Below are positions 1 to 63,344 of a DNA stretch of 64,000 nt, piece by piece. Source of the DNA: Escherichia coli (GTDB taxonomy: Bacteria > Pseudomonadota > Gammaproteobacteria > Enterobacterales > Enterobacteriaceae); assembly GCF_016903815.1 (NCBI RefSeq), contig NZ_CP069973.1. The stretch is one strand, 5' to 3'. Both the position numbers and the translations under genes were made by a program. The notes beneath the pieces were generated by a model. The model saw only the letters and a list, made by a program, of their open reading frames with translations, searched no databases and was not told where the DNA came from. Position 1 is the first letter of the stretch; the number at the start of each line of letters is the position of its first letter.

Positions 1-711
1 AGCGATATAAACAATACCTGCTAAACCAGTACCCAGCATGGTTGCCAGCGGAACGGTACGTTTCGGGTTTTTAACCATACCAGTACTTACAGCTGCGGAT
101 TCAACACCCACGAAGGCCCACAGGCAGAGCAGAATACTTTTAATGATCGCATGACCATCGGTGGTATCCGCAGTATTCCAGTTAGCAGCATAAGTCGCAG
201 CATCAAACCAATGCCAGCCAACAATAGCTGTCATTACCACAGGAATAAGAACCAGCACCAGACCAATAGTGGTTAAACGGCTTACCCAGGTACCGCCGAG
301 CATATTTACAAAGGTAAATACCCAGACGATAGCAATACAGGCGATACCCGCCGGAACAGGATCATTTAATACTGGGAAGAAGGTGGAAAGATAAGATACA
401 GCGGTAATACCAATCGCCAGGTTACCAATCCAGTTAGCATGGTAATAAAGAACACCTGTCTGAAAACCAAATGCAGGGGAAATTTCTCCGGCATAAGCAA
501 TTGGGCCACCTTGTTGCGGGTTTTTTGTTGCCAGTCGGGCATATACATACGCCAGCGACATTGCACCAATAATAGAGATAATCCAACCCCAGATAGCAAT
601 ACCACCGATACTTGCTAGGTTCGCAGGTAATAATGCAATACCGCTCCCCATCATATTACCGGCAACAACACCGGTACAGGCAAATAGCCCGATCTTCTTG
701 GCAGAACTCAT
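1..711 (-). CDS. cadB: Lysine/cadaverine antiporter CadB, N-terminal part (gene continues beyond window start)
   Basis: Minus-strand translation from ATG at 709..711 begins MSSAKKIGLFACTGVVAGNMMGSG, matching remembered CadB; sits downstream of cadC as in the cad locus. Confidence 0.93.
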   Translation of the reverse strand, partial: MSSAKKIGLFACTGVVAGNMMGSGIALLPANLASIGGIAIWGWIISIIGAMSLAYVYARLATKNPQQGGPIAYAGEISPAFGFQTGVLYYHANWIGNLAIGITAVSYLSTFFPVLNDPVPAGIACIAIVWVFTFVNMLGGTWVSRLTTIGLVLVLIPVVMTAIVGWHWFDAATYAANWNTADTTDGHAIIKSILLCLWAFVGVESAAVSTGMVKNPKRTVPLATMLGTGLAGIVYIA

Positions 712-1075
712 GCTCTTCTCCTAATTTCATTTTTGAATTTGGAGTCCGGGTCATGATGTATAACTATTTCCTGACCAGACCAAACTGGCGCTAAGAATAC
801 TCACAAAAAAGGATTAATCCTAAAGATTAGGTGAAATAACACAAAAGTTTCTGTAAGTGAGAACTTGAGGTTTTTTATTAACACATCAGGATCGCAAGTT
901 GATATCATGAAAAGATAAACATTCAATGTTTACAATGGATTGCGGGACATTTTCTGGTTAAATTTATGTAATAAAAATTATGCGGCAAATAAATTGCCGC
1001 AACATATTATACCAACAGGAACATACAAAAACTCAACAACAAATATTGCCGAGCATAAATCAACCCGGGAGTTAC
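712..1075 (-). promoter_or_regulatory. cadC-cadB intergenic region containing the Pcad promoter and CadC-binding region
   Basis: Position between cadC stop and cadB start; AT-rich; assignment from established knowledge of the cad locus, no sites mapped. Confidence 0.6.
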
Positions 1076-2614
1076 TTATTCTGAAGCGAGAAATTTGTCG
1101 AGATAAGGTACAACATAAGGAACAGAAGTCTGGAATATACCATTTTCAATCCAGTAAAGGGTGTTTGCCCCTGGGCGTAAATTAAAGGCGGTGAGATATG
1201 CATCAGCTGCTTCCCGGTTCATCCCCTTCATTTCATAAACCTTGCCAAGCAATACATAATTTAGCCAGGACATTTCAAGATCAATGCCAGTATTTATCGC
1301 CTGATAAGACTCATCTGTTTTACCTTTTACCAGAGCACTGACCGCTTTTATTTGATATATAATGGACAGGTTATTCAATTCCGGTAGTGTAACAATGTTA
1401 TCTATTTCTGTGTTCAGTGCTGCTAATTGTTTTTCATCTAAAGGATGTTGAGAATGGCGCACGATATCAACTAATGCTTTTTCTGCTCTCGCGTAGGTAA
1501 ATTCTGGGGATGATTGAACAATCTCACCTAATAATTCACTGGCACGGTTCAATGATTTATCATCGCCATGCAGTAAATAATCATGTGCCTGATAAAAATT
1601 AGTTAATAACGCACCACGATGAGGCAAAATTTGCTGGAGCATCTCCTGCATTCGTTGTGGCCACGGTTGGTTTAACGCTTTTGATAAACTCTCCAGTAAA
1701 TCATTTTGAATCGCCAGCTGATTACCGTTAGTGATGACATAACGTTTATCCAGCATGGTTGAACCATCTGCATTGTCTACCAATTTTACCGACATAAAGC
1801 ATTGTTGAGCACGGTATTGGCGCTGATTAACAAACGCAATAGATAATGTTTTACCGGAACTGCTCGGTTCATCAATGTTGTAGTTGATTTTGTCATGCAC
1901 CATAAAGGTGGAGAAGGTGTTAAGTGATGTCGCCACCAAATCACCCACGCCTATCGCGTAAGAGAGCTGATACGGGGAACTCCAGCTGTTACAACTTTTA
2001 TTTACCATATTAATGTCAATATCGCGTGGATTGAGCAAAATACGCGATTTGCTCATCGGAAGACGTGTATCAAGACTTGAAAACGCTACCAGTGCTACAC
2101 AGATACCTAACGACAACAGGAAAAAAAACCATACCCAAAAGGTAGTGAATCGTTTGCTTTTAACTGGGGATTGTTCAGGTGGCGTTGCGGTGTTTTGAAT
2201 GTTAAGACTGTGGGAGGGAGAATCTGTGTCAGGAACCGCCTCTGGTATAGGGGGAGGCGAAGATAGCATTATTTCCTCTCCCTCTTCTTCGCTGTACCAG
2301 ATAACCGGCACCATTAATTTATAGCCGCGCTTTGGTACAGTAGCGATATAGACAGGACTATCTTCATCATTATCTTTTAATGACTTACGTAGTTCTGAGA
2401 TACTCTGCGTCACAACGTGATTGGTGACAATACTTCTCTTCCAGACATTATCGATAAGTTCATCCCTGCTAAGTACTTCGCCACTGTGTTGAGCAAAGAA
2501 AACCAGAAGATCGATTAATCTCGGCTCAAGGGTAAGTTGACGCCCATTGCGGCTAATTTGGTTTATGGACGGAGTAACAAGCCATTCGCCAACGCGAACT
2601 ACAGGTTGTTGCAT
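1076..2614 (-). CDS. cadC: Transcriptional activator CadC (ToxR-like membrane-bound regulator), 512 aa
   Basis: ORF translation MQQPVVRVGEWLVTPSINQISRNGRQLTLEPRLIDLL... matches remembered E. coli CadC across its length. Confidence 0.97.
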   Translation of the reverse strand: MQQPVVRVGEWLVTPSINQISRNGRQLTLEPRLIDLLVFFAQHSGEVLSRDELIDNVWKRSIVTNHVVTQSISELRKSLKDNDEDSPVYIATVPKRGYKLMVPVIWYSEEEGEEIMLSSPPPIPEAVPDTDSPSHSLNIQNTATPPEQSPVKSKRFTTFWVWFFFLLSLGICVALVAFSSLDTRLPMSKSRILLNPRDIDINMVNKSCNSWSSPYQLSYAIGVGDLVATSLNTFSTFMVHDKINYNIDEPSSSGKTLSIAFVNQRQYRAQQCFMSVKLVDNADGSTMLDKRYVITNGNQLAIQNDLLESLSKALNQPWPQRMQEMLQQILPHRGALLTNFYQAHDYLLHGDDKSLNRASELLGEIVQSSPEFTYARAEKALVDIVRHSQHPLDEKQLAALNTEIDNIVTLPELNNLSIIYQIKAVSALVKGKTDESYQAINTGIDLEMSWLNYVLLGKVYEMKGMNREAADAYLTAFNLRPGANTLYWIENGIFQTSVPYVVPYLDKFLASE

Positions 2615-4712: not shown

Positions 4713-5086
4713 TGTTTCGCCTCCGGATGCTTCCCCCGGGTAATGTTATTTACCGTTCTGTAGTTGCTGCGGGTCATCAGACCTGTTGCCCGGCGAGCCC
4801 GGAGAATATCAATGCTGTTGATTAACTGCGACGAGGCTCCTGCGCTGAATCCCGGCTGGTCAGTTCGTACCAGTGCGTATTTTTCCACGAGAAAGTTCAC
4901 TGCATCACACAGTGAAATGCCTGCCTCAATATGCTGCTCAATCACGCGTTCATCCACGAACGGTGTGTCATTCAGCGTAAGGCTGTAATGCTGGTCCAGT
5001 AACCGGGTGAGCAGTGTCTGCCAGATGGTGACGGGAGACGGGCAGCACGATACCTCCCGTACATGCGTGTCGGGTAATGTTTTCAT
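4709..5086 (-). CDS. CbtA/YeeV/YkfI-family toxin (type IV toxin-antitoxin)
   Basis: MKTLP...[42 protein letters not shown]... matches the CbtA family. Confidence 0.85.
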
Positions 5087-5175
5087 ACTGAAGATTTTCC
5101 TGATATGCAGAGATAAAAAATGGGACAGTGGTGTGGTGAAAACACCAGGCCGGAGCAGAAGGTTATTCTGGTGGT

Positions 5176-5544
5176 TTACTTTTTCGTTTCAGGTGTCGGA
5201 TAAACAGCCAGATAAACGTAACCACAGGAGCCGAGGGTGTCGGCTTCACAGGTCAGCCCCTTCGCATACAGTGTCACGGTATGCTGATGGCGGGGATTCA
5301 GTTCACCACTGGTGAGCATTAATTTCAGTTGTTTCATCAGCAGCGGAAAGGCCTGGTCCAGAGGGTACGCATCCGCATCTCTGAACCGGCCTCTGTTACC
5401 GGCACGGTCGGCAAGGTAATGCAACCGGTTACCCTCCTGCACCAGACGGGCGCCGAAACAGGGCGTCACTGTGCAGGGTAGTCCCCACCAGGGATGGTCG
5501 TGATTGTCATCGGGATGCGTTGTCCCGGAGAGTGTGTCTGACAC
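5176..5544 (-). CDS. CbeA/YeeU/YfjZ-family antitoxin; probable GTG start at 5544 (the in-frame ORF extends to 5652)
   Basis: [49 protein letters not shown]... matches the CbeA family. Confidence 0.8.
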
Positions 5545-5706
5545 GATAAAATCCTCACAGAAAATCGGTGAATGATAGTTTAACGATGACGGGTCAGCCG
5601 GCGCGCAGACCGGCTTCGGTAAAGGTGTATTCGTTGATGAGCAGGACCTCATCCACAGCGGCGTCTGAGCTCAGCCAGTCGTACTCGTTTTCCGGGTGAC
5701 GGAACA

Positions 5707-5928
5707 TCAGTTCAGGGTGACGCTCATCAGCCGGACATACGGACCAAAACTGTCCTTACGGCGTTCTGCAAACACGGCCAGCACACCGGGAATATCCTGC
5801 ACTTCACGACCGGTATACGCTTCAGCACTGCCGTGCCAGCGGTATTTGCCGGTACAGAACGGAAAAAGACGGGATGCCGGATGCTGACGGTGAATACGCA
5901 TGGCTTCGCCACGGGTGATGATTTTCAT
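5707..5928 (-). CDS. DUF987 protein (YeeT-like), 73 aa
   Basis: MKIITRGEAMRIHRQHPASRLFPFCTGKYRWHGSAEAYTGREVQDIPGVLAVFAERRKD matches YeeT; start at internal Met of the 109-aa ORF. Confidence 0.8.
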   Translation of the reverse strand: MKIITRGEAMRIHRQHPASRLFPFCTGKYRWHGSAEAYTGREVQDIPGVLAVFAERRKDSFGPYVRLMSVTLN

Positions 5929-5992
5929 AGTGGGATACCTCTGAAGACAGAAGATAAAAGTGAAAACAGGTGTGATGTGTGGTTGTGACGGG

Positions 5993-6469
5993 TTAAAGCA
6001 GACCATGTTCGGCAAAGGAGAAAACCTGGCTGCCACCGACTATCAGATGGTCCGGCACCCGGATATCCACCAGGCCCAGTGCCTGTACCAGACGTTCCGT
6101 GATAAGGCGGTCTGCCTTGCTGGGTGTGACTTCACCGGACGGGTGATTGTGTGCCAGCACCACAGCAGCGGCATTGTGATACAGGGCGCGTTTAATCACT
6201 TCCCGGGGATGGACTTCCGTGCGGTTGATGGTGCCGGTGAAGAGGGTTTCACCGGCAATCAGCTGATTCTGGTTATTCAGATACAGCACCCGGAATTCTT
6301 CACGCTCCAGTCCCGCCATGTTCAGAATCAGCCATTCCCGTGCCGCACGGGTGGAGGTGAAGGCCACGCCGGGTTCATGAAGATGGCGGTCCAGGGTTTT
6401 CAGGGCCCGCTGAATGAGACTGCGCTCGCCGGGCGTCATCGCTCCGGGCAGAAAGGAAATCTGTTGCAT
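5993..6469 (-). CDS. RadC-like JAB-domain protein (YkfG/YfjY/YeeS family)
   Basis: HNHPSGEVTPSKADRLITERL motif (JAMM/RadC). Confidence 0.85.
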   Translation of the reverse strand: MQQISFLPGAMTPGERSLIQRALKTLDRHLHEPGVAFTSTRAAREWLILNMAGLEREEFRVLYLNNQNQLIAGETLFTGTINRTEVHPREVIKRALYHNAAAVVLAHNHPSGEVTPSKADRLITERLVQALGLVDIRVPDHLIVGGSQVFSFAEHGLL

Positions 6470-6484
6470 TGTTCCTGCCCCCTT

Positions 6485-6964
6485 TCAGTCAATGATGCGC
6501 ATAATGGCGTCGTATTCCGGATGTTGCAGGGCGTAATCCCGCAGCCGGTAATAATGGACCGTCATGGCATAATTCTCCGTACGACAGGCATGATGACTGT
6601 ATGCCATCAGACAGGCTGCAATGCCGGCGGCTTCCGGACTCATTTCAGCGCGGTTACCGTTCATGGCATTGAACAGTACCCATGTTTCGTCATCATCGTC
6701 ATCCGGTTCGGGGGCCATAAATGCGCCACCGTTGTTCAGGGTGTACAGATTCCAGATGCCCCCGCAGTAGTCTTCGCACAGACGGTCCATCCAGCCGAAG
6801 ACACGGGGCTCCAGGGTCACCCACTGTGGAATGAGGCCAAAATGCTGCGGCCAGAAGCTGATACGTTGTTCATCAGGGACGGGAGTAGCAACCAGTTGGG
6901 GCTGGTTATTCCCTGGTGCTGTGGCTGAAGAAAGAGCAGTTGTGTTCTGAGAAACGATTTTCAT
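6485..6964 (-). CDS. Antirestriction protein, KlcA/ArdB family (YafX/YfjX-like)
   Basis: Acidic DDDDDE stretch and conserved C-terminus; start taken at internal Met (MKIVSQNTTAL). Confidence 0.75.
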   Translation of the reverse strand: MKIVSQNTTALSSATAPGNNQPQLVATPVPDEQRISFWPQHFGLIPQWVTLEPRVFGWMDRLCEDYCGGIWNLYTLNNGGAFMAPEPDDDDDETWVLFNAMNGNRAEMSPEAAGIAACLMAYSHHACRTENYAMTVHYYRLRDYALQHPEYDAIMRIID

Positions 6965-7229
6965 GAGTGAAATCCTTACAATGTGTATAAATGAGAGGAA
7001 ATAAAGGCCGGGGGCTGACAACATCACGTTCATCACTGACCGTGAGACCCGGCAATATCAGGGATGAATGATATTCGGCTGAAATTCCGGACAGCCGTAC
7101 GCGTAACCGTTCCGGTCACAGACGGATGGCCAGAAGATGCCATTGCCTGTACTCAGTCTGCACAGACTGAGTTCTCCGGGGCGTCGGGTGATTCTGGTGC
7201 CTGAATCACGCCTTCAGGGACAGATTGCA

Positions 7230-8048
7230 TCAGCGCAGGCTCTCCAGTAGCGTTTCTGCCATCACCCACAATGCGCGATTGAGCTTAATGTCGGTGTCGA
7301 TGCTGTGAATGGCACGGGTGTGGATACGTTTTCCTCTGGCACTGCGACCGGAAATTCCGCCTTTCAGCATATTCTCCTGGATGGTCTGATAAGTACTCCA
7401 CAGGTCCTTACCGTAATCCTCCCGGCGTCGTGGCGTCAGAATGTCGGTAGTGGTGACGGGCTGATGTTCATCACCATAACGGTAAGTCAGCGCCGCCTGT
7501 GCCAGCGCCTGGCGTGCCGGTGGCGGCAGGACCAGCGACTGCATGGCATCACGCTTTTCCTCAATCCGGTCAAACACGCCCACCACTTCGTAAGCACCTT
7601 CTATGACCCTGTCCACCACGTTTCCCCGGTGTGGCACCCGGACTTCTCCCAGCGACTGACCGCAGACCAGGCCATTGGTACAAATGGCACGAAAATATCC
7701 GGGTAACATCTGGTAGCTGGATGAACCGTCATGGGAGTTGAGCAGAATAATTTCAGGCACATGCTGACCGGTTATCTGTCCGGCCCGCCGCAGACGCAGC
7801 ATATGTTTGGTATATTCCCGGCGGCTCTGGTCGCGCACACGGGTCTGGCAGGCGAAGAACGGCTGAAAGCCTTCCCGCTGCAGATTTTCCAGGACGGTGA
7901 TGGTGGGAATGTACGCATACCGTTCACTGCGGGAGGTGTGCCGGTCTTCTCCAAAAATACTCGGGACGTGGTACATCAGTTCTTCGCGTGTCAGTGGGCG
8001 CTCCCGACGGATCTGATTTACATGACCAAAACGACTGGCTAATTGCAT
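7230..8048 (-). CDS. DUF932 protein (YafZ/YfjQ-like)
   Basis: 272 aa at the expected position in a CP4-like gene order. Confidence 0.7.
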   Translation of the reverse strand: MQLASRFGHVNQIRRERPLTREELMYHVPSIFGEDRHTSRSERYAYIPTITVLENLQREGFQPFFACQTRVRDQSRREYTKHMLRLRRAGQITGQHVPEIILLNSHDGSSSYQMLPGYFRAICTNGLVCGQSLGEVRVPHRGNVVDRVIEGAYEVVGVFDRIEEKRDAMQSLVLPPPARQALAQAALTYRYGDEHQPVTTTDILTPRRREDYGKDLWSTYQTIQENMLKGGISGRSARGKRIHTRAIHSIDTDIKLNRALWVMAETLLESLR

Positions 8049-8137
8049 ACTTTGCTCCTTATGAATGAATTAGCGGTATAAACGAAAAGGCCGCGTCTCC
8101 CGGAGAAGACGCGGCCTGATGGATGAAATGAAGACGT

Positions 8138-8371
8138 TTATTGCCTGAGAATTCCCTCACTGGCGAGGTACGAATTTAGCTGTTTTCCGGCGTCAGACTC
8201 AAAATTCCAGCACCGCCAGCGTAGCTGCCCTTCGGCATTGCGGATAACCAGCAGGAAATGCGTTCCATGGTCATCTTCAATAAGCACATTGCGGTAAGCT
8301 GTTGTGGCAGCCATTGCCTGTTTGCGTGAGAAAGGGCCTTCGGGCAATAAAACAGGGTGACAGTCCGACAT
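8138..8371 (-). CDS. Small hypothetical protein (77 aa)
   Basis: ORF in operon context between the lipoprotein and DUF932 genes. Confidence 0.45.
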
Positions 8372-8376
8372 ACCGG

Positions 8377-9054
8377 CTATTTTCCGATAAATTCAACGCT
8401 GGCACTGGTGGCATTACCGTCAGCACCAACCGTGACGGTCACTTTGTCGTACGCACGGTCTTCAGGATTGAATACTTCAAACTCAACCTTATTGCCTTTT
8501 ACTTCGTAAGAGCCAAAATCAGCGGTTTCTGTTGTTTCCTCGTCATATTCCCGGGCGTATGCCTGCCGGGCAGCCTGCAGGACGGAGTCTTTATTAATAG
8601 TGGTCGTCTGTTTCGGGGAAAAACCGGCAAGTGATGTGACAAATTTCGGACAGACCTTCAGCATATCACCGCGGGTGAATTCCATTCGTACACCAAATGC
8701 CTGTAAAACGGACACATCACGCTCTGCTATGGAGTGAACGGCTTTTTTGACCATTTCCGGCGCCTGTCCGATTTCCACCTCAACAGCCCTGAATCCCGTC
8801 TGCTGATTACACATTTGTGATGTGGGGATCAGGTTACCGTTAATACTGATACGGCTGCCCAGGAGCGTCTGTACGCCATTCGGGCATCCCTGCATCAGGC
8901 CGGTAATACCAATCGTGCCATTTTTCAGCATTACCAGCGCCTGACCATCTTCCGTCATGGTCTGACACCAGCCGTTTTTGACAGCCCAGTTGCCGGCGGA
9001 GGCGGAGAATGATGCCACAGTGAACAGCAGGGGAAAAAGAGCTCTGGTATTCAT
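8377..9054 (-). CDS. Putative lipoprotein (YafY/YfjS-like)
   Basis: Signal-peptide-like N-terminus [21 protein letters not shown] from internal Met; start codon at 9052..9054. Confidence 0.6.
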
Positions 9055-9201
9055 GACTGACCTCTGAAATGAACGTACGGTGTTATTGATAATGATGGAA
9101 GGTATGCAGTGACTGTTCAGGGAATGACGTAGCCGTATATTTAGTTTTCTGTTCAACATATTGTCTCCATACCTGTCGGGACGGCTTTGGCAGGCCGGCG
9201 A

Positions 9202-9882
9202 TCACAGGTTAAAGGTGTTGATAAGTTTATGGATGAAAGAGAAATGTGGCAGGGCGGAGATAAAACGCTCTTCAGCGACCAGACTGTGGATGTGGCCTCT
9301 CCGTTCAAACCGTTCTGATGTCAGGCTGACTGATTTGATATCTGCCAGAGGAAAGACCTGCAGTTTTCCCTTCTGTAACGCGATCAGATACCAGCTACCG
9401 CTGTAATAAATGAGCCGGCAGGGCTCCAGTGACGGATACCATCGCTCAGTCATCAGAGAGATGTGGATACACTGTCTTATTGCCAGGATGAGTTGCGAGA
9501 AACACTCGGGGAACGTTGCAGTGATATTCGGCGCCGGTAGCCAGATAAGGCAGGGAGAGGGCTCCTGGTTGTCGGTAAGACAGGTTATCAGTCGTCCGTT
9601 CCGGAGCGGAAGTATCCGTGCGATCCCGGTATTCTGTATAAAAGAAAGCATTTCAGGGATCGCACCTGGGCTGCTCTGTCGTCTGAGGCTGTACCTGCCA
9701 TTTCTGTACTCTAAATCCAGGTGAACCAGACGCTGATGAAAATCGCGCTGTAAAGTACGTTCTGTAACGCCAAATTCATCTGACAGTGCTTTTAGTGACA
9801 GAGATTCTCCGGCCATCAGTCGGCTGATAATGAGTGATAAGCGAACCGCCAGGCGATCATGCCGGGAACGATTATCAGACAT
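9202..9882 (-). CDS. HTH plus WYL-domain transcriptional regulator (YfjR-like)
   Basis: N-terminal HTH (LSLKALSDEFGVTERTLQRDF) and a C-terminal SWYLIA motif. Confidence 0.65.
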   Translation of the reverse strand: MSDNRSRHDRLAVRLSLIISRLMAGESLSLKALSDEFGVTERTLQRDFHQRLVHLDLEYRNGRYSLRRQSSPGAIPEMLSFIQNTGIARILPLRNGRLITCLTDNQEPSPCLIWLPAPNITATFPECFSQLILAIRQCIHISLMTERWYPSLEPCRLIYYSGSWYLIALQKGKLQVFPLADIKSVSLTSERFERRGHIHSLVAEERFISALPHFSFIHKLINTFNL

Positions 9883-10084
9883 AGATGTGCACTCCGTAAG
9901 AAAACATCTTTTATTTCATGATGTTATTATGCCTCATGGTGTTGAAAGGATGTGTCGTATCTGAATAATCAGGAATAAAATGCAGCAGAAAAAATATTCC
10001 TTTAATTATCTGATTTTTAATGATGATTTCATAAAAAGAAGAATACTCATTAATCCAGCGACACATCCTGTCGGCGTGAGTGTG

Positions 10085-10969
10085 TCAGAACAGACGATCC
10101 CACAGTGTTTCTAGCAGGCGGATAATGCGGTCCCGGGCTTTACGCAGAAGCTGTAACATCCAGACCGGAAAAGTGAACCGGGCAACGGCGTCGTCAAAAC
10201 TTTTCCCGATGGCGTCACCAAAAGTCTGTTGTGCGTGTTTCTGGGCCTGTTCAGAGCGGTTTTCCCCCCGGATATGTGAATAAACCGCACTGGTTGCCTG
10301 CGGTGGCAGGGCGTGGATCATCAGCGACACAAACGCCGGAAGATTCCAGCCGACAGGCGCAGCAACGGGGAGTACCGGAAATGATGACGGGAACAGGGTT
10401 GCCACCCTGGCTGTAACAGTTGCCAGTGAGAGTTCCTGGTGACGGGATGGGCATTTTTCTGTGGCATTCCATTCTTCAGCAGGAAACACGCGATCGGCAT
10501 GGCTGAGAACAAACAGAAAACGCGAGGGATCTGCACCTTCATTCAGTAAAAACTGATGCATGGCAATATCGGCAGCATACGCACGTTCATCAGCCCGCAG
10601 GATCCAGATAATCAGATCCAGTTCCGGCAGTAACTGACGGTAAAGCTCCCGGTATTCCTGATCATGCTGCGGTGTCTCACCAATGCCGGGCAGATCGACC
10701 AGCGTCATTCTGCGTTCACCAATCTGCAGGGTGAGGCGATGAGCCTGGCGGGTGCAGCCGTTCAGGGGATGCGTGGCGCAGATACGGGACTGAAAAATGG
10801 CATTACACAGACTGCTTTTGCCGGTGCCGGATTTACCCATAATGCCAATCACGGGCTCGTAATGAATAACACCGTGGAGATGTTCAAGGATTTTCTGGCG
10901 AATTTCTTCAGGAAGAAACGTCAGATATGATTTCACTTGCGCGGAGAGGGAAGAATTGCTGAATGGCAT
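10085..10969 (-). CDS. GTPase of the YeeP/YkfA/YfjP family
   Basis: P-loop GKSGTGKSS and DLPGIGE motifs. Confidence 0.85.
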   Translation of the reverse strand: MPFSNSSLSAQVKSYLTFLPEEIRQKILEHLHGVIHYEPVIGIMGKSGTGKSSLCNAIFQSRICATHPLNGCTRQAHRLTLQIGERRMTLVDLPGIGETPQHDQEYRELYRQLLPELDLIIWILRADERAYAADIAMHQFLLNEGADPSRFLFVLSHADRVFPAEEWNATEKCPSRHQELSLATVTARVATLFPSSFPVLPVAAPVGWNLPAFVSLMIHALPPQATSAVYSHIRGENRSEQAQKHAQQTFGDAIGKSFDDAVARFTFPVWMLQLLRKARDRIIRLLETLWDRLF

Positions 10970-11069
10970 ACCGGTATCCTGTTGATTTCACTGAACCGGA
11001 TCACACTAATCCGGTTTATCATTCAGGTAATATGGGTGTGAAAATTTTTCCATTGACGGGAAGAAGAGT

Positions 11070-24357: not shown

Positions 24358-24526
24358 CTGATTCGTCATTCCCTTCGTCCCGCCAGTCACTGGTGTTTGT
24401 ATCGTACCGTCCGGTGTTGATGTGCGTTTTCCGTGTGTCTGCACCGGCTTAACAAAATTCAACAGGGTTTGAAAAGGAACATTTCGTGCAAATAACCGAA
24501 GCCTTAATTTCAGAGCCGGGAGACAT

Positions 24527-24891
24527 CCGGCGTTTTGTTCAGCAGGCGCTGGAGTTCTTTAATCTGCTTCATGGCAGCAGCAAGTTCAGAGGCAGGAACG
24601 ACCTGTTCTCCTGCGGCCACAGCAGTAAGACTTCCCTCCTGGTATTGCTTGCGCCAGAGAAATAACTGGCTGGCTGCCACACCGTGTTGCCGGGCAACAA
24701 GGGAGACCGTCATTCCCGGTTCAAAGCTCTGCTGAACAATAGCGATCTTTTCCTGTGTAGTACGCCGTCTGCGTTTCTCCGGTCCTAAGACATCAATCAT
24801 CTGTTCTCCAATGACTAGTCTAAAAACTAGTATTAAGACTATCACTTATTTAAGTGATATTGGTTGTCTGGAGATTCTGGGGGCTAGTCTA
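24527..24891 (-). mobile_element. IS2 fragment (left end with truncated insC)
   Basis: Near-identical to the IS2 left end seen intact at 53024; InsC translation diverges after LQRLL; terminal GGGGGCTAGTCTA. Confidence 0.85.
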
Positions 24892-24939
24892 GTTTTAAAA
24901 CGCCCCCTGCCGTATCAGAACTGGGGAATGCTACAGGGT

Positions 24940-26048
24940 TTGACCTGTTCCTCGAGGATCGTAGCGGAGCTGGCCATGAAAAAATGATCCAGGCCCGAAA
25001 TCAGCTTCTTGCTGAAGCGGCGAAAAGTCCAGCGTTAAACATGGTTCGTCCTAACGGCATGAACGATGAGCCTCAGTTCCAGATTCTGATTGATGACGAG
25101 AAAGTTCAGGCGCTTAAACTGAGCATGAGCGACGTCGACAACATAATGTCAGCAGCCTGGGGTTCGATGTATGTAAATGATTTTAACGATCGTGGACGGG
25201 TGAAAAAAGTCTATATTTAGGGCGAACCCGGCTCACGTATATCACCGCAGGATTTTGATAAATGGTATGTCCGTAACAGTGATGGCGACATGGTTTCCTT
25301 TGCCTCTTTTGCAACAGGCAAATGGATTTATGGCTCACCAAAACTGGAGCAATATAATGGTATCTCTGCTGTCGAAATCCTGGGGGAACCGGCACCAGGA
25401 TACAGTTCCGGGGATGCAATGAAAGCAATTGAGGATATTGCGGCAAGACTTCCCGAAGGTTTCCATATTTCCTGGACAGGTTTGTCTTTTGAGGAACGAC
25501 TTTCAGGTTCTCAGGCTCCTGCACTATATGCACTTTCACTGTTGATCGTCTTTCTGTGTCTGGCTGCACTGTATGAAAGCTGGAGCATTCCTTTCTCGGT
25601 CATGCTGGTTGTTCCGCTTGGTGTCCTGAGGGCTGTCTGTGCTACTTTGTTGCGCGGCCTTGGTAACGATGTCTTTTTCCAGGTCGGTTTATTAACAACA
25701 ATAGGGCTGTCTGCGAAAAATGCCATACTTATCGTGGAGTTTGCTCGTGAATTGCATGAGAAAGAAGGACTAAGCATTAAAGAGGCTGCTGTTGAAGCGG
25801 CGAGAGTGAGGTTAAGACCGATAATTATGACTTCGCTGGCATTTGTAATGGGGGTTATCCCACTGGCTGTCTCGACTGGAGCAAGTTCCGGAAGTAAACA
25901 TGCCATCGGTACTGGTGTGGTTGGAGGGATGATCACTGCTACGATACTGGCAATCTTTTATATTCCTCTCTTCTATATGTTAATTGCCGGGTTCTTCAGC
26001 CGCAGAAATAAGAAATCATCGGATAAGACTGAAGCTGAGCAATCATAA
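24940..26048 (+). pseudogene. RND efflux transporter (AcrB/MdtF family), 3' portion only, with in-frame TAG at 25218..25220
   Basis: Translation aligns to the C-terminal third of AcrB-like pumps in one frame across the stop; 5' end removed at the IS2 fragment. Confidence 0.8.
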
Positions 26049-26147
26049 GCATGAGTAAATATTCAGGTGCAGTAAACAACATACTGCGCCTGAGTAAATG
26101 GCTGTTGGGTTGGTACTAAATGCCCCAGAGATATTTCCTGAAATAAG

Positions 26148-26819
26148 ATGTCAATGGAGATTTCAACAGTGGTGCGGCACACAAAATTTGCAGCGGAAGA
26201 AACCCGCAAACAAATCCTGGATGCGGCAGAGTTCTGCTTTTGTGAGACGGGCTTTTCGAAGACGACACTGGAGATGATTGCGGTGCGCGCAGGTTGTACT
26301 CGGGGGGCCATATACTGGTATTTCAACGAAAAAAAAGATCTTCTGCGACAAGTCATCGAGCGGGTACCACTATCATTATTTGATGAGCTTACAGCCATCA
26401 AAAATGGGAGAGTTTCTGAACCGGTTAAAGCGATGTATCGTTGCTTATCACGTAGCCTGATTAAATTACAATATAATGTACACTTACGGAATGTAATTTA
26501 TATTGTGTTTTTTTGTGAAGAATGTCCGGATGATATAAGAATAAATTTCTTACAAAAAATGGTGGATGTCAATAATTTTGTGAAATTACTATGTTATATT
26601 TTCGAAAAAGGTAAGTTATATAGAGAAATATGTTCGGAAATTCGTAGTGAGGCTCTGGCGTTCCTGCTTTTTTCTTTGTTTACGGGGGTGGTGCGAAGTT
26701 GCATTCTGCAACCTGATAATAAATCCCTTTTCAGAGAGGGTTGCATAGTACTGGAGTTGACCCAATCAACCTTCACAGGCATCGATAAAAATGAACGCTA
26801 CTATAAAAAACAGCGCTGA
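26148..26819 (+). CDS. TetR-family transcriptional regulator
   Basis: N-terminal TetR HTH (RKQILDAAEFCFCETGFSKTTLEMIAVRAGCTRGAIYWYF). Confidence 0.75.
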   Translation: MSMEISTVVRHTKFAAEETRKQILDAAEFCFCETGFSKTTLEMIAVRAGCTRGAIYWYFNEKKDLLRQVIERVPLSLFDELTAIKNGRVSEPVKAMYRCLSRSLIKLQYNVHLRNVIYIVFFCEECPDDIRINFLQKMVDVNNFVKLLCYIFEKGKLYREICSEIRSEALAFLLFSLFTGVVRSCILQPDNKSLFREGCIVLELTQSTFTGIDKNERYYKKQR

Positions 26820-26937
26820 TATCAATGAGCTTGCTAAATGAATTGATGAAAATCTTGAGGTAGAACTCTCAATAAATATTGAGGCAAAAAAGCTGGATAT
26901 TCAAAATGGTATTTACAGAAATTGTTTAAACATATCA

Positions 26938-27135
26938 TTGGTATTTCTATTGGTAGGTATATTAATAAATGCAGCAGAAGAACTACGTTCTACTACTGAA
27001 TCGGTCACGACTATCACTTTTAAATATCAGTTTGATTTTCAGCAGACATTTACAAGGGCATTTACTCGCCGCTTTGGTATAGCTCCTATTGCATACCGAA
27101 AACTCGCTAAGGAAGAAGTGAGATGGAATAGTTAG
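26938..27135 (+). pseudogene. AraC-family regulator, C-terminal HTH fragment
   Basis: FTRAFTRRFGIAPIAYRK resembles the second AraC helix; upstream frame is broken. Confidence 0.45.
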
Positions 27136-27444
27136 TTATGTAAGCGTTATTTACTTAAGCGTGGATATATAAGAATGGTATTATCAATATGTTGCTCATG
27201 AGTTTTTAATAGCATATAGGCTTGTTAACATAGCCCAGCAATATAATTTGCAGTGGGAGCAGGTATGCATACAGAACAGTGGGCGAGGACGAGCGTCCCT
27301 TTTCGAACAAGGTAGCAAAAGAGGAAGAAGAAAGACAAATACAACTGGGCCTGAAAGGGTAGTGTTTAAGCCCCCTTTCAGGGGGCCGTGTCAAAGCCGC
27401 CCGCTATGCAGATGGTTTTTTACTTTATCTGTTAAGCAAAAAAA

Positions 27445-31696: not shown

Positions 31697-31965
31697 ATAT
31701 TTATAAATAATTTGTCACGAAAAAATTGAAATGGATCACAGCAACAAAAACAGCTCCGGCTCTGAAAGTAATGCTTCGGTTATTTGCAAGGGATACTCCT
31801 TTTCAAACCTTGCTGAACCAGTGCAGATACACAGGGAAACGTATACCAGAACTGCCACAATACAAACGCCAGTTACTGGCGATACGAATGGAATGACGAG
31901 GCAGTCTGTCAGAAAGCCCCACATGAACGATCACCACCTACATAGGAGGTGTTTTAAAATTGATC

Positions 31966-33769
31966 GAGTAGGAGGCGGGATCACTCCCGCCGTCCTCTCA
32001 CACCACCGTACGTGCGGTTCCGCATACGGCGGTTCATGTTAACTCTGGAACTGCCTCTACTGTTCCAGCAGTGATATCAGACCCTGCCTCCTGAACCATG
32101 CATTCTTTATCGCCTGATTCATATGGCTTGACCCTGAGTTCCACCATGGCCCGTGGTTGTTGTACGCAGAGATCATTGCCCTGTCCTTACTCAGTCCTGC
32201 TCTTTGCAGATTCTTTGCCCGGGTTCGCGGTCTCTTCCACTGCCGCTACAACAAGCAACGCAGTTTCCGTTTGATCCAGCCATCCAGCTCCTCCAGCACT
32301 CCTCTGACTTCCGTCAGCCTGAAGTAGCTTATCCATCCACACAGCACTGGTGTCAGAGCATTGATTGTCGCTTTCACTGATTTGCTCCGGTTTCCCGTCG
32401 TCAGACTGTGGACTTTCTCCTTCAGCCTGTTCACGCTCGTCAGGGCTATCTTCAGCTTCGCCTGTTTGTGCCATGTCACACTGTACCCGAGGAACTTCCG
32501 ATCCCACGGGCGCGCCACCGCGCTCTTCTTCTCATTCACCTTCAGTTTGTTCTCCACGAACGCCCTGATGTTCTTCAGCAGATGGTCGCCCGCTTTCCGG
32601 CTGCTTACGTAGATGTTGCAGTCGTCTGCGTAGCGGCAGAAGCTGTGTCCACGACGCTCTAGTTCTTTATCCAGTTCATCCAGCAGGATGTTCGACAGTA
32701 ACGGCGACAGTGGGCCGCCCTGCAGCATGCCCGCCTGCCGTTTCTCCCTTTGCCCGTCTTTAACCATTTCCACTTTCAGGTAGCGGCGTATCAGTCACAG
32801 CACCCGCCTGTCCTTTATCGTTCTGGCCAGACGCGTCATCAGGAGTCTGTGATCCACCCGGTCGAAGAACTTCTCCAGATCCATATCCACCACCCACCGT
32901 TTGCCACCCCGTATGTAACGCTGTGCCTGTTGCACCGCCTGCTGGATAAGCCTGTCCACCACCGTCGGGATGCCTGAGGTTCTCACGCCGCCATCCGGCT
33001 TCGGGATATCCATCCGGCGTATTGCCCGCGGCTGGTAGTTTCCGTCAATCAATGCCTGCCTGACGCTGCGCCAGTTCTTCTTCAGCCACGGTTTCAACTC
33101 CGCCACGCTGAGGTTATCCACCCCCGCCGTGCCTTTGTTTTCCAGCACGCGCTGATAAGCCAGCATCAGGTTTTCTCTCGTTATCACCGCTTCCATCGTC
33201 AGCGGCACTTCCGCTTTCGTTTGCCCACCCGCCGCCGTGCTGATTTCAGCGCCATCATGCAGCCCTGACGGATACTGTCCGTCTCCTCTGCCGCTGGTCG
33301 CAGTTGCCTGCGCTTGTGCTTCATTAATCATCATCGGGTTCGGATGTCCTAATCACAGTTAATCATGTTCGGCCCTTCATGCTGCCGGTTTTGCAGCACT
33401 ACTACGGCGTCGGCTGACTTCTGCCGCCCCATCCCGGCGCCTCACGGCGCCGGTAGCACACTGGCAGGGCGACAGATCTCCCGGGGTAATTCACGTGACT
33501 TTCCTGCTTATGCCTGTCGGCTTTACGTCACAGCGTTCCGTGTGAGTATCGGGCTTTGGTGATTTGTGCCACCTTACCCTGCTGCGCCGCCTTAACCGCT
33601 TCCTGTTCGTCAGGCCAGCATTTTGCATCCAGCTTCCTTCAGATTTCACCTCGCGATGAACACCCTTGCCTTCCGCTAACACTTCCCCTCACCGGGTGTG
33701 TGGAGGACTTTCACCTCTTAGTCGTTCTTCTGCCACCACAGTTGAAGAACAGCGCCAGTCACGGCGCAC
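31966..33769 (-). mobile_element. Degenerate group II intron (class C-like) inserted after a terminator hairpin
   Basis: 5' end GTGCGCC immediately after hairpin 33771..33810; domain V-like CCGTATGCGGAACCGCACGTACGG near 32000; disrupted RT ORF inside. Confidence 0.65.
32246..33334 (-). pseudogene. Group II intron reverse transcriptase, disrupted (in-frame stop, internal deletion, C-terminal truncation)
   Basis: Two abutting ORFs (179 and 175 aa) with RT motifs FCRYADDCNIY and GGPLSPLLSNILLDELD. Confidence 0.8.
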
Positions 33770-52979: not shown

Positions 52980-53114
52980 AAATACGCAGGCTTGGCACGA
53001 ACTTAAACAGAGCAGTAAAGTGGTAGACTGGCCCCCTGAATCTCCAGACAACCAATATCACTTAAATAAGTGATAGTCTTAATACTAGTTTTTAGACTAG
53101 TCATTGGAGAACAG

Positions 53115-53480
53115 ATGATTGATGTCTTAGGGCCGGAGAAACGCAGACGGCGTACCACACAGGAAAAGATCGCAATTGTTCAGCAGAGCTTTGAACCGGG
53201 GATGACGGTCTCCCTCGTTGCCCGGCAACATGGTGTAGCAGCCAGCCAGTTATTTCTCTGGCGTAAGCAATACCAGGAAGGAAGTCTTACTGCTGTCGCC
53301 GCCGGAGAACAGGTTGTTCCTGCCTCTGAACTTGCTGCTGCCATGAAGCAGATTAAAGAACTCCAGCGCCTGCTCGGCAAGAAAACGATGGAAAATGAAC
53401 TCCTCAAAGAAGCCGTTGAATATGGACGGGCAAAAAAGTGGATAGCGCACGCGCCCTTATTGCCCGGGGATGGGGAGTAA
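53115..53480 (+). CDS. insC: IS2 transposase InsC (orfA)
   Basis: [56 protein letters not shown]. Confidence 0.95.
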
Positions 53481-54343
53481 GCTTAGTCAGCCGTTGTCTC
53501 CGGGTGTCGCGTGCGCAGTTGCACGTCATTCTCAGACGAACCGATGACTGGATGGATGGCCGCCGCAGTCGTCACACTGATGATACGGATGTGCTTCTCC
53601 GTATACACCATGTTATCGGAGAGCTGCCCACGTATGGTTATCGTCGGGTATGGGCGCTGCTTCGCAGACAGGCAGAACTTGATGGTATGCCTGCGATCAA
53701 TGCCAAACGTGTTTACCGGATCATGCGCCAGAATGCGCTGTTGCTTGAGCGAAAACCTGCTGTACCGCCATCGAAACGGGCACATACAGGCAGAGTGGCC
53801 GTGAAAGAAAGCAATCAGCGATGGTGCTCTGACGGGTTCGAGTTCTGCTGTGATAACGGAGAGAGACTGCGTGTCACGTTCGCGCTGGACTGCTGTGATC
53901 GTGAGGCACTGCACTGGGCGGTCACTACCGGCGGCTTCAACAGTGAAACAGTACAGGACGTCATGCTGGGAGCGGTGGAACGCCGCTTCGGCAACGATCT
54001 TCCGTCGTCTCCAGTGGAGTGGCTGACGGATAATGGTTCATGCTACCGGGCTAATGAAACACGCCAGTTCGCCCGGATGTTGGGACTTGAACCGAAGAAC
54101 ACGGCGGTGCGGAGTCCGGAGAGTAACGGAATAGCAGAGAGCTTCGTGAAAACGATAAAGCGTGACTACATCAGTATCATGCCCAAACCAGACGGGTTAA
54201 CGGCAGCAAAGAACCTTGCAGAGGCGTTCGAGCATTATAACGAATGGCATCCGCATAGTGCGCTGGGTTATCGCTCGCCACGGGAATATCTGCGGCAGCG
54301 GGCTTGTAATGGGTTAAGTGATAACAGATGTCTGGAAATATAG
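53438..54343 (+). CDS. insD: IS2 transposase InsD (orfB)
   Basis: 301-aa ORF with the IS3-family DDE core; overlaps insC in the frameshift arrangement. Confidence 0.95.
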
Positions 54344-54355
54344 GGGCAAATCCAA

Positions 54356-60604: not shown

Positions 60605-63344
<2,740 letters not shown>

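Follow-up and report, generated by a model that had tools for sequence, protein, structure and literature searches.

Known efflux systems and an intact counterpart of the locus

Efflux operons of the AcrAB/AcrEF type (HAE-1, PF00873), TetR-family efflux repressors such as SmeT, TtgR and AcrR, and the small activators RamA, MarA, SoxS and Rob are the described systems closest to the locus considered here. The acrAB and acrEF efflux systems use TolC. Among the activators, RamAp of Salmonella, a plasmid-borne, horizontally acquired RamA (PMC13253676), is the nearest published analogue, being likewise a mobile accessory copy of a RamA-type regulator.

We analysed a stretch of 64,000 nucleotides of Escherichia coli DNA, hereafter the window, and conclude with high confidence that its positions 24901–27303 are a remnant without function, namely the right-hand end of an efflux module of five genes that was acquired horizontally and is carried as island cargo beside cadC. 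An intact five-gene locus, in the order TetR regulator, adaptor, RND permease, second TetR regulator and RamA-like activator, occurs in 4 of 5426 complete E. coli genomes and in Citrobacter koseri. In E. coli STO_Bone1B and three other genomes the products have 210, 374, 1044, 221 and 119 aa, the last being a helix–turn–helix (HTH) protein; in C. koseri a divergent TetR gene (210 aa) is followed by genes for the adaptor (374 aa), the RND permease (1044 aa), the second TetR (221 aa) and an AraC-type protein (115 aa). We reached these loci through TetR orthologues in the protein database, the contigs that encode them and searches of E. coli genomes; a scan of genome contigs with TetR peptide patterns found no relative. 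The earlier note had proposed to identify the closest intact pump and regulator locus together with its host, and the answer is E. coli itself, at about 92% nucleotide identity (blastn, window 24901–27303), followed by C. koseri, at 88% (window 24901–27139).

How does the intact locus compare with the described systems? First of all, it resembles AcrAB/AcrEF-type operons in combining a 1044-aa permease with a MexA/AcrA-like adaptor and a divergent TetR gene. Like those operons, neither the E. coli nor the C. koseri locus contains an outer-membrane gene, and the pump thus presumably used TolC. It differs from them in that a second TetR gene and a RamA-like gene follow downstream, while the permease of the window keeps only codons 663–1044, with a stop codon among them. 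The permease is none of AcrB, AcrD or OqxB; for the AcrB equivalog (NCBIfam NF011706), where the cut-off is 2150 bits, the intact E. coli orthologue reaches 1512. Second, the intact RamA-like protein (115–119 aa) shares two HTH motifs with RamA, MarA, SoxS and Rob and aligns with them over 99–100 residues. Its gene, on the other hand, translationally overlaps the TetR gene and is not divergent from ramR, and three lesions mark the window copy as a pseudogene. Third, the second TetR protein has a TetR_N domain and full-length similarity to SmeT (E = 4e-25) and also to TtgR, NalD and AcrR; it differs in falling under the AcrR and EnvR cut-offs and in being encoded downstream of the pump gene, in the same orientation. 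Finally, the state of the window copy matches IS-associated decay in E. coli islands: an IS repeat abuts the cut gene, the IS is itself cut, and later lesions and IS insertions have followed. Nothing here is unusual beyond the well-resolved intact and intermediate alleles. The intact module would mediate drug efflux through TolC, the TetR proteins acting as repressors and the RamA-like protein as activator.

The TetR and RamA-like genes of the intact loci overlap by 11–29 nt, which suggests co-translation. In four other E. coli genomes the permease gene is interrupted near codon 61 by another IS3-family element, which is complete. More distantly, a Klebsiella IncFIB plasmid carries a version with an outer-membrane factor and a 299-aa Rob-like regulator, its RND protein being 82% and its TetR protein 41% identical at the amino acid level. 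A recent plasmid origin of the remnant was considered and rejected; the plasmid collection yielded nothing closer than distant relatives, of which this Klebsiella plasmid was the best. Neither the remnant nor its intact form was found described in the literature searched on pheU islands, RND pumps of C. koseri, E. coli RamA-like genes and the grp locus.

Extent and prevalence of the remnant

The features of the remnant, and the positions of the intact modules, are collected in Table 1; its anatomy, junctions, lesions and the distribution of those lesions are directly observed.

Table 1. Positions of the remnant's features in the window and of the intact modules used for comparison
Feature	Position	Strand	Evidence
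IS2-family (IS3 family) left-end fragment, nt 1–351 of ~1.33 kb	24541..24891	-	96% identity to the IS2 copy in the window
9-bp filler GTTTTAAAA between IS2 terminus and pump homology	24892..24900	.	Base-by-base comparison with intact L010 and L006
RND (AcrB-family) permease pseudogene, codons 663–1044 of 1044	24901..26048	+	Pfam ACR_tran; alignment with intact orthologues
TetR/AcrR-family regulator, 223 aa, intact here	26148..26819	+	TetR_N E = 6e-14; full-length alignment
Small RamA/MarA/SoxS-type (AraC/XylS family) activator pseudogene, full gene extent	26791..27135	+	DNA alignment with intact genes
First 13 codons of SLC13-family permease gene	27265..27303	+	blastn to L008/L009/L010; translation
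Intact module, E. coli STO_Bone1B (L010, CP054169)	9001–15111 of L010; 34957–41067 of CP054169
Intact module, C. koseri (L005–L007)	4893–11003

The earlier note had described positions 24940–27135 as a decayed remnant of a pump pseudogene, a TetR regulator and an AraC-type piece. That content is real; the limits needed correction at both ends, with pump homology beginning at 24901 and the remnant continuing to 27303. Its remark that the 3′ half is AT-rich agrees with our measurements, in which GC falls from 0.46–0.49 across the pump part to 0.32–0.37 across 26350–27250. Inside the remnant, neither Rfam nor tRNA scans detected an RNA feature. In E. coli 7/2 (CP023820) the region is annotated by PGAP as an incomplete transposase, an RND permease pseudogene, a TetR/AcrR regulator and a 61-aa HTH protein.

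The region matches many complete E. coli chromosomes at 100% identity, and segment 24903–27135 is found in 538 of the 5426 complete genomes, one copy each. The efflux module is thus carried by only about 10% of E. coli genomes. One of the roughly 530–538 matches lies on a record classed as a plasmid; either a replicon assigned wrongly or a genuine transfer could explain this.

The junctions and the island context

At the left edge, the terminal inverted repeat of an IS2 fragment ends at 24891, and the break inside the element lies at 24541. The fragment retains the N-terminal part of orfA (Pfam HTH_Tnp_1, E = 1.3e-19) and lacks the second end and a full orfAB; PGAP labels it 'transposase, incomplete'. 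IS2 and other IS3-family transposase loci in 4866 E. coli genomes match it (query positions 62–412). Its counterpart in the window is 53024–53374, the left end of a complete IS2 copy (~53024–54350, plus strand) that lies amid type VI secretion gene remnants, namely an ImpA N-terminal fragment, VasL and a POTRA fragment; since the two are only 96% identical, they are different IS2 variants. We considered whether the junction could derive, through an adjacent deletion, from the truncation near codon 61 of the L009/L011 type, and rejected this, as that IS3-family element is a different, complete one that shows no similarity to the IS2 fragment of the window; the alleles also differ by about 8% in nucleotide sequence.

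A 62-bp inverted repeat (24458–24519 and 31756–31817, 85% identity) is also present. Its left copy lies just left of the IS2 fragment and overlaps a truncated 'UCP030791 family' gene (24486–24569), and its right copy adjoins the 3′ end of a group II intron inside the grp locus. The repeat might mark a shared target or recombination site.

At the right edge, blastn homology to L008, L009 and L010 stops at 27303/27304. The translation of the last stretch before it, MHTEQWART, matches the start of the SLC13 permease of the intact L010 locus, and the intact E. coli loci are followed by genes for this permease, a histidine kinase and a response regulator. To the right of 27303 lies sequence flanking the grp locus, which encodes a glycyl-radical propanediol microcompartment.

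The remnant is genomic island cargo. Prophage-like genes and psuK-psuG-nupC lie to its left (E. coli 7/2, CP023820), the intact E. coli loci share psuK-psuG-nupC and a sugar kinase gene upstream with the window's island, and the entire block adjoins cadBC in accessory DNA rich in mobile elements. The C. koseri locus lies in an island adjoining a phage-type (P4-type) integrase, by dsbD-cutA-dcuA. The description of the segment as backbone-like was therefore mistaken, given its presence in about a tenth of genomes, the mobile-element-rich DNA beside cadC and the integrase next to its C. koseri counterpart.

Several other features of the island were noted. The left end of the window (1–2600) holds cadB and cadC, after which the island genes start (DUF4942, a CbtA/YeeU toxin–antitoxin system, antirestriction). 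No tRNA gene was found anywhere in the 64 kb; the attachment tRNA of the island is presumably pheU, beyond the window, as the K-12 map and the context in C. koseri suggest. A group II intron (31963–33660, minus strand) lies between grpP and grpO of the grp operon, with Rfam matches to D1–D4 and to domain V/VI, and looks degenerate, its reverse-transcriptase gene being split in the annotation into two short ORFs (483 and 540 nt). Another group II intron (~61276–62874, plus strand; Rfam Intron_gpII 62788–62874), with an intact ltrA reverse transcriptase/maturase gene, lies amid a patch of IS3- and IS30-family fragments into which it has inserted.

An allelic series of truncated copies

Nine truncated E. 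coli alleles were compared with the intact loci. All nine share the IS2 junction, a 14-bp deletion in the RamA-like gene and the loss of permease codons 1–662, of the adaptor gene and of the upstream region. Beyond these common changes, two sublineages can be told apart. One, comprising the window, L001, L014 and L016, has an in-frame TAG in the permease fragment and, in the RamA-like gene, a TGA codon and a deletion in an A-run; within it, the window and L001 also share a Gly-to-Arg change at 25629–25631. The other (L002, L003, L015, L017 and L018) keeps CAG at the position of the TAG and has a +1 frameshift in a T-run of the TetR gene (T7 to T8, 26508–14) together with further indels. All six sampled alleles without the TAG have CAG there. 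Further, independent damage includes an inserted IS903B (H26), a deletion that leaves 58% (H55), an IS1 insertion accompanied by a deletion (L019) and, in an allele of the TAG type (L014), a TetR gene shortened to 312 nt. Some of the differences in homopolymer length (T-run, G-run, A-run) could be assembly errors, although they recur in several independent genomes. The secondary lesions, differing as they do across sublineages, fit neutral decay.

In the CAG-type alleles two T-to-G changes (26686–26692 and the equivalents in L002, L003, L015, L017 and L018) create a G-run, whose length varies between genomes (G9, G8, G7); slippage or homopolymer assembly error could account for this variation.

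The TetR gene

The TetR gene had been said to look intact, and in the window it is intact: the ORF has the TetR_N domain and aligns end to end with intact 221-aa orthologues, at 91% identity to the E. coli L009/L010-type protein and 76.5% to that of C. koseri. Its best relatives of solved structure are SmeT (2w53), TtgR, NalD and AcrR, and it remains below the equivalog cut-offs for AcrR (81.7 against 271 bits, NCBIfam) and EnvR (62.5 against 274 bits). On sequence similarity, we place the protein in the SmeT/TtgR/AcrR-like clade of efflux repressors. Its 3′ end overlaps the start of the RamA-like gene by 29 nt.

This intactness raises the question of whether the remnant is wholly dead. The boldest reading would make TetR a working orphan regulator kept from the lost pump locus and, separately, would see in the intact module of rare E. 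coli and C. koseri an AcrAB-type pump, island-borne and uncharacterised, whose own RamA-like activator could raise intrinsic multidrug resistance by also inducing the acrAB-tolC regulon of the host, as RamAp does in Salmonella; we regard this reading as improbable. The narrower proposal, that selection keeps the TetR gene of the remnant as an orphan regulator, for example for cross-repression of chromosomal efflux operons or of adjacent island genes, we consider very unlikely, and the evidence on it can be set out as follows. The ORF is full length (223 against 221 aa), and the segment with the T-run is exact in 343 of the 459 genomes that match it, the remaining 116 differing (by an indel in the examples checked). 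The gene is open in the window and in about two thirds of carriers, and residual selection, not chance, could be the reason. Against this, the large minority in which it is broken includes L002, L003, L014, L015, L017, L018 and L019, where it is frameshifted or disrupted. The dN/dS of 0.31–0.41, although below 1 in all comparisons, is the same between two intact loci and thus reflects the history before truncation. Furthermore, the TetR gene has lost the partner with which it was co-transcribed and the operon that its product presumably controlled. The promoter scan gave no more promoter-like matches in the region than shuffled sequences would lead one to expect, and none between the pump stop and the TetR start. 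The surviving TetR gene probably has no function at all, its frequent disruption in sister lineages arguing against one.

The RamA-like gene

The piece that the earlier note had called an AraC fragment is not a truncated one. Both its start (26791) and its stop (27135) align with those of the intact genes, of 119 codons in E. coli (L009/L010) and 115 in C. koseri (L006), and the gene is broken internally by three lesions: a TGG-to-TGA change at 26839–26841, a 1-bp deletion in an A7 run (26886–26891) and the 14-bp deletion, which lies between 26960 and 26961. The first HTH of the window copy is out of frame, and no ORF encodes both HTH motifs. Because the 1-bp and 14-bp deletions jointly restore the frame, a deceptively open ORF of 114 codons arises, which is annotated in some strains.

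One could instead suppose that the piece is the C-terminal end of a large AraC/Rob-type regulator that has lost its 5′ part. In the window only the last 65 codons (26938–27135) form an ORF with an HTH_18/AraC-type match (Pfam), and the distant Klebsiella plasmid cluster has its Rob-like protein at the corresponding position. Yet the whole length of the RamA-like gene is present bar 15 deleted bases and one nonsense codon, with both ends alignable, and the HTH domain of the Rob-like protein is N-terminal, so that even this comparison would not make the piece 5′-truncated. We judge such an origin highly improbable and read the piece as a complete but broken RamA/MarA-like gene.

Of solved structures, RamA (7bef) is the closest to the intact orthologue of this gene (E = 1.3e-29, residues 11–109), followed by Rob, SoxS and MarA. 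The orthologue remains below every equivalog cut-off (RamA 122.9 against 180 bits, SoxS 120.4 against 174, MarA 92 against 202–250), and the RamA-like protein is for this reason taken as a separate paralogue. A search of the L010 locus for the very degenerate marbox consensus AYNGCACNNWNNRYYAAAY, allowing at most one mismatch, gave no match against 0.6 expected by chance.

The permease pseudogene and its stop codon

The permease fragment matches Pfam ACR_tran (PF00873) with E = 6.5e-131 (438 bits), far beyond chance, over profile positions 657–1020 of 1021; only the C-terminal third of the protein is left. It is 95–96% identical to the intact E. coli and C. koseri orthologues and 80–82% identical to the Klebsiella plasmid pump. 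Homology starts nine bases from the IS2 terminus, at codon 663, and agrees with the earlier description of an AcrB-family gene cut at its 5′ end beside an IS2 fragment. Measured against a complete permease (~1040 aa, 12 TM segments), the copy lacks codons 1–662 and with them the N-terminus and the start codon, and what remains of the reading frame is interrupted by the TAG; PGAP notes 'internal stop; missing N-terminus'. In RND permeases, TM4 holds the proton-relay aspartates (AcrB D407/D408). The pump part cannot work, because TM1–7 and any adaptor partner are missing; the activator is lost as well, and efflux by the window copy is thus impossible.

Two secondary lesions were found in the fragment, the CAG-to-TAG change (25218–25220) and the Gly-to-Arg change (GGG to AGG). 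As had been reported, the TAG is the only stop in a frame that is otherwise intact: translation of 24849–26048 gives a single AcrB-like frame with this one stop, and no other frame is open. That the pump gene is really open, the TAG being either an artefact of sequencing or assembly or a codon that is read through, can be dismissed, for although the TAG is the sole stop in an otherwise open frame of 382 codons, the 61-bp stretch that contains it is identical in 319 independently assembled complete genomes (319 of 530 exact and 211 with one mismatch, by short query), no alternative frame is open, and even without the TAG the gene would have neither codons 1–662 nor a start codon, nor its adaptor gene. 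The two outcomes that would have overturned the earlier interpretation, a sequencing error or completeness in another frame, are thereby excluded.

The suggestion that the TAG had recently inactivated the gene holds in its timing only. The dN/dS of the fragment against intact orthologues is 0.074–0.086, the value between two intact copies being 0.072, which indicates that constraint was lost only recently; as dN/dS is unchanged for the pump and TetR genes alike, nearly all of their divergence predates the loss of function. The inactivating event was the truncation, which all nine truncated alleles share, and the TAG is real but secondary.

A proposed history

What follows is a reconstruction, not an observation, of the order in which the IS2 insertion and the deletions took place. 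The ancestral module would have consisted, in order, of a divergent TetR gene, a MexA/AcrA-like adaptor gene, an AcrB-like RND permease gene, a second TetR gene and a gene for a small RamA/MarA-like activator. An IS2-family element would have ended up at permease codon 663 in the ancestor of the grp-linked E. coli island. A leftward loss would then have removed IS2 past nt 351, permease codons 1–662, the adaptor gene, the divergent TetR gene and the region upstream of the operon. On the right side, the SLC13 permease gene would have lost everything beyond codon 13, its stump becoming joined to the grp locus. The remaining genes would subsequently have drifted: in the sublineage of the window the permease fragment probably gained its TAG and its Gly-to-Arg change, and the RamA-like gene its TGA and its 1-bp deletion, in addition to the shared 14-bp deletion. 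That the TetR gene of the window is still intact would be a matter of chance.

Significance

The remnant is a case of ordinary gene decay, and the pseudogene status of its pump is already in the RefSeq annotation. As a textbook IS-associated truncation followed by neutral decay of island cargo, it matters little in itself. Our analysis does correct the annotation of the small HTH ORF, which is part of a broken RamA/MarA-like gene and not a separate protein. The allelic series (intact, IS-cut at codon 61, IS2-cut at codon 663, and with secondary lesions) could mark lineages of the grp-bearing island. Furthermore, the remnant draws attention to an accessory efflux module, so far uncharacterised, that includes a RamA-like regulator and is found in C. 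koseri and in rare E. coli.
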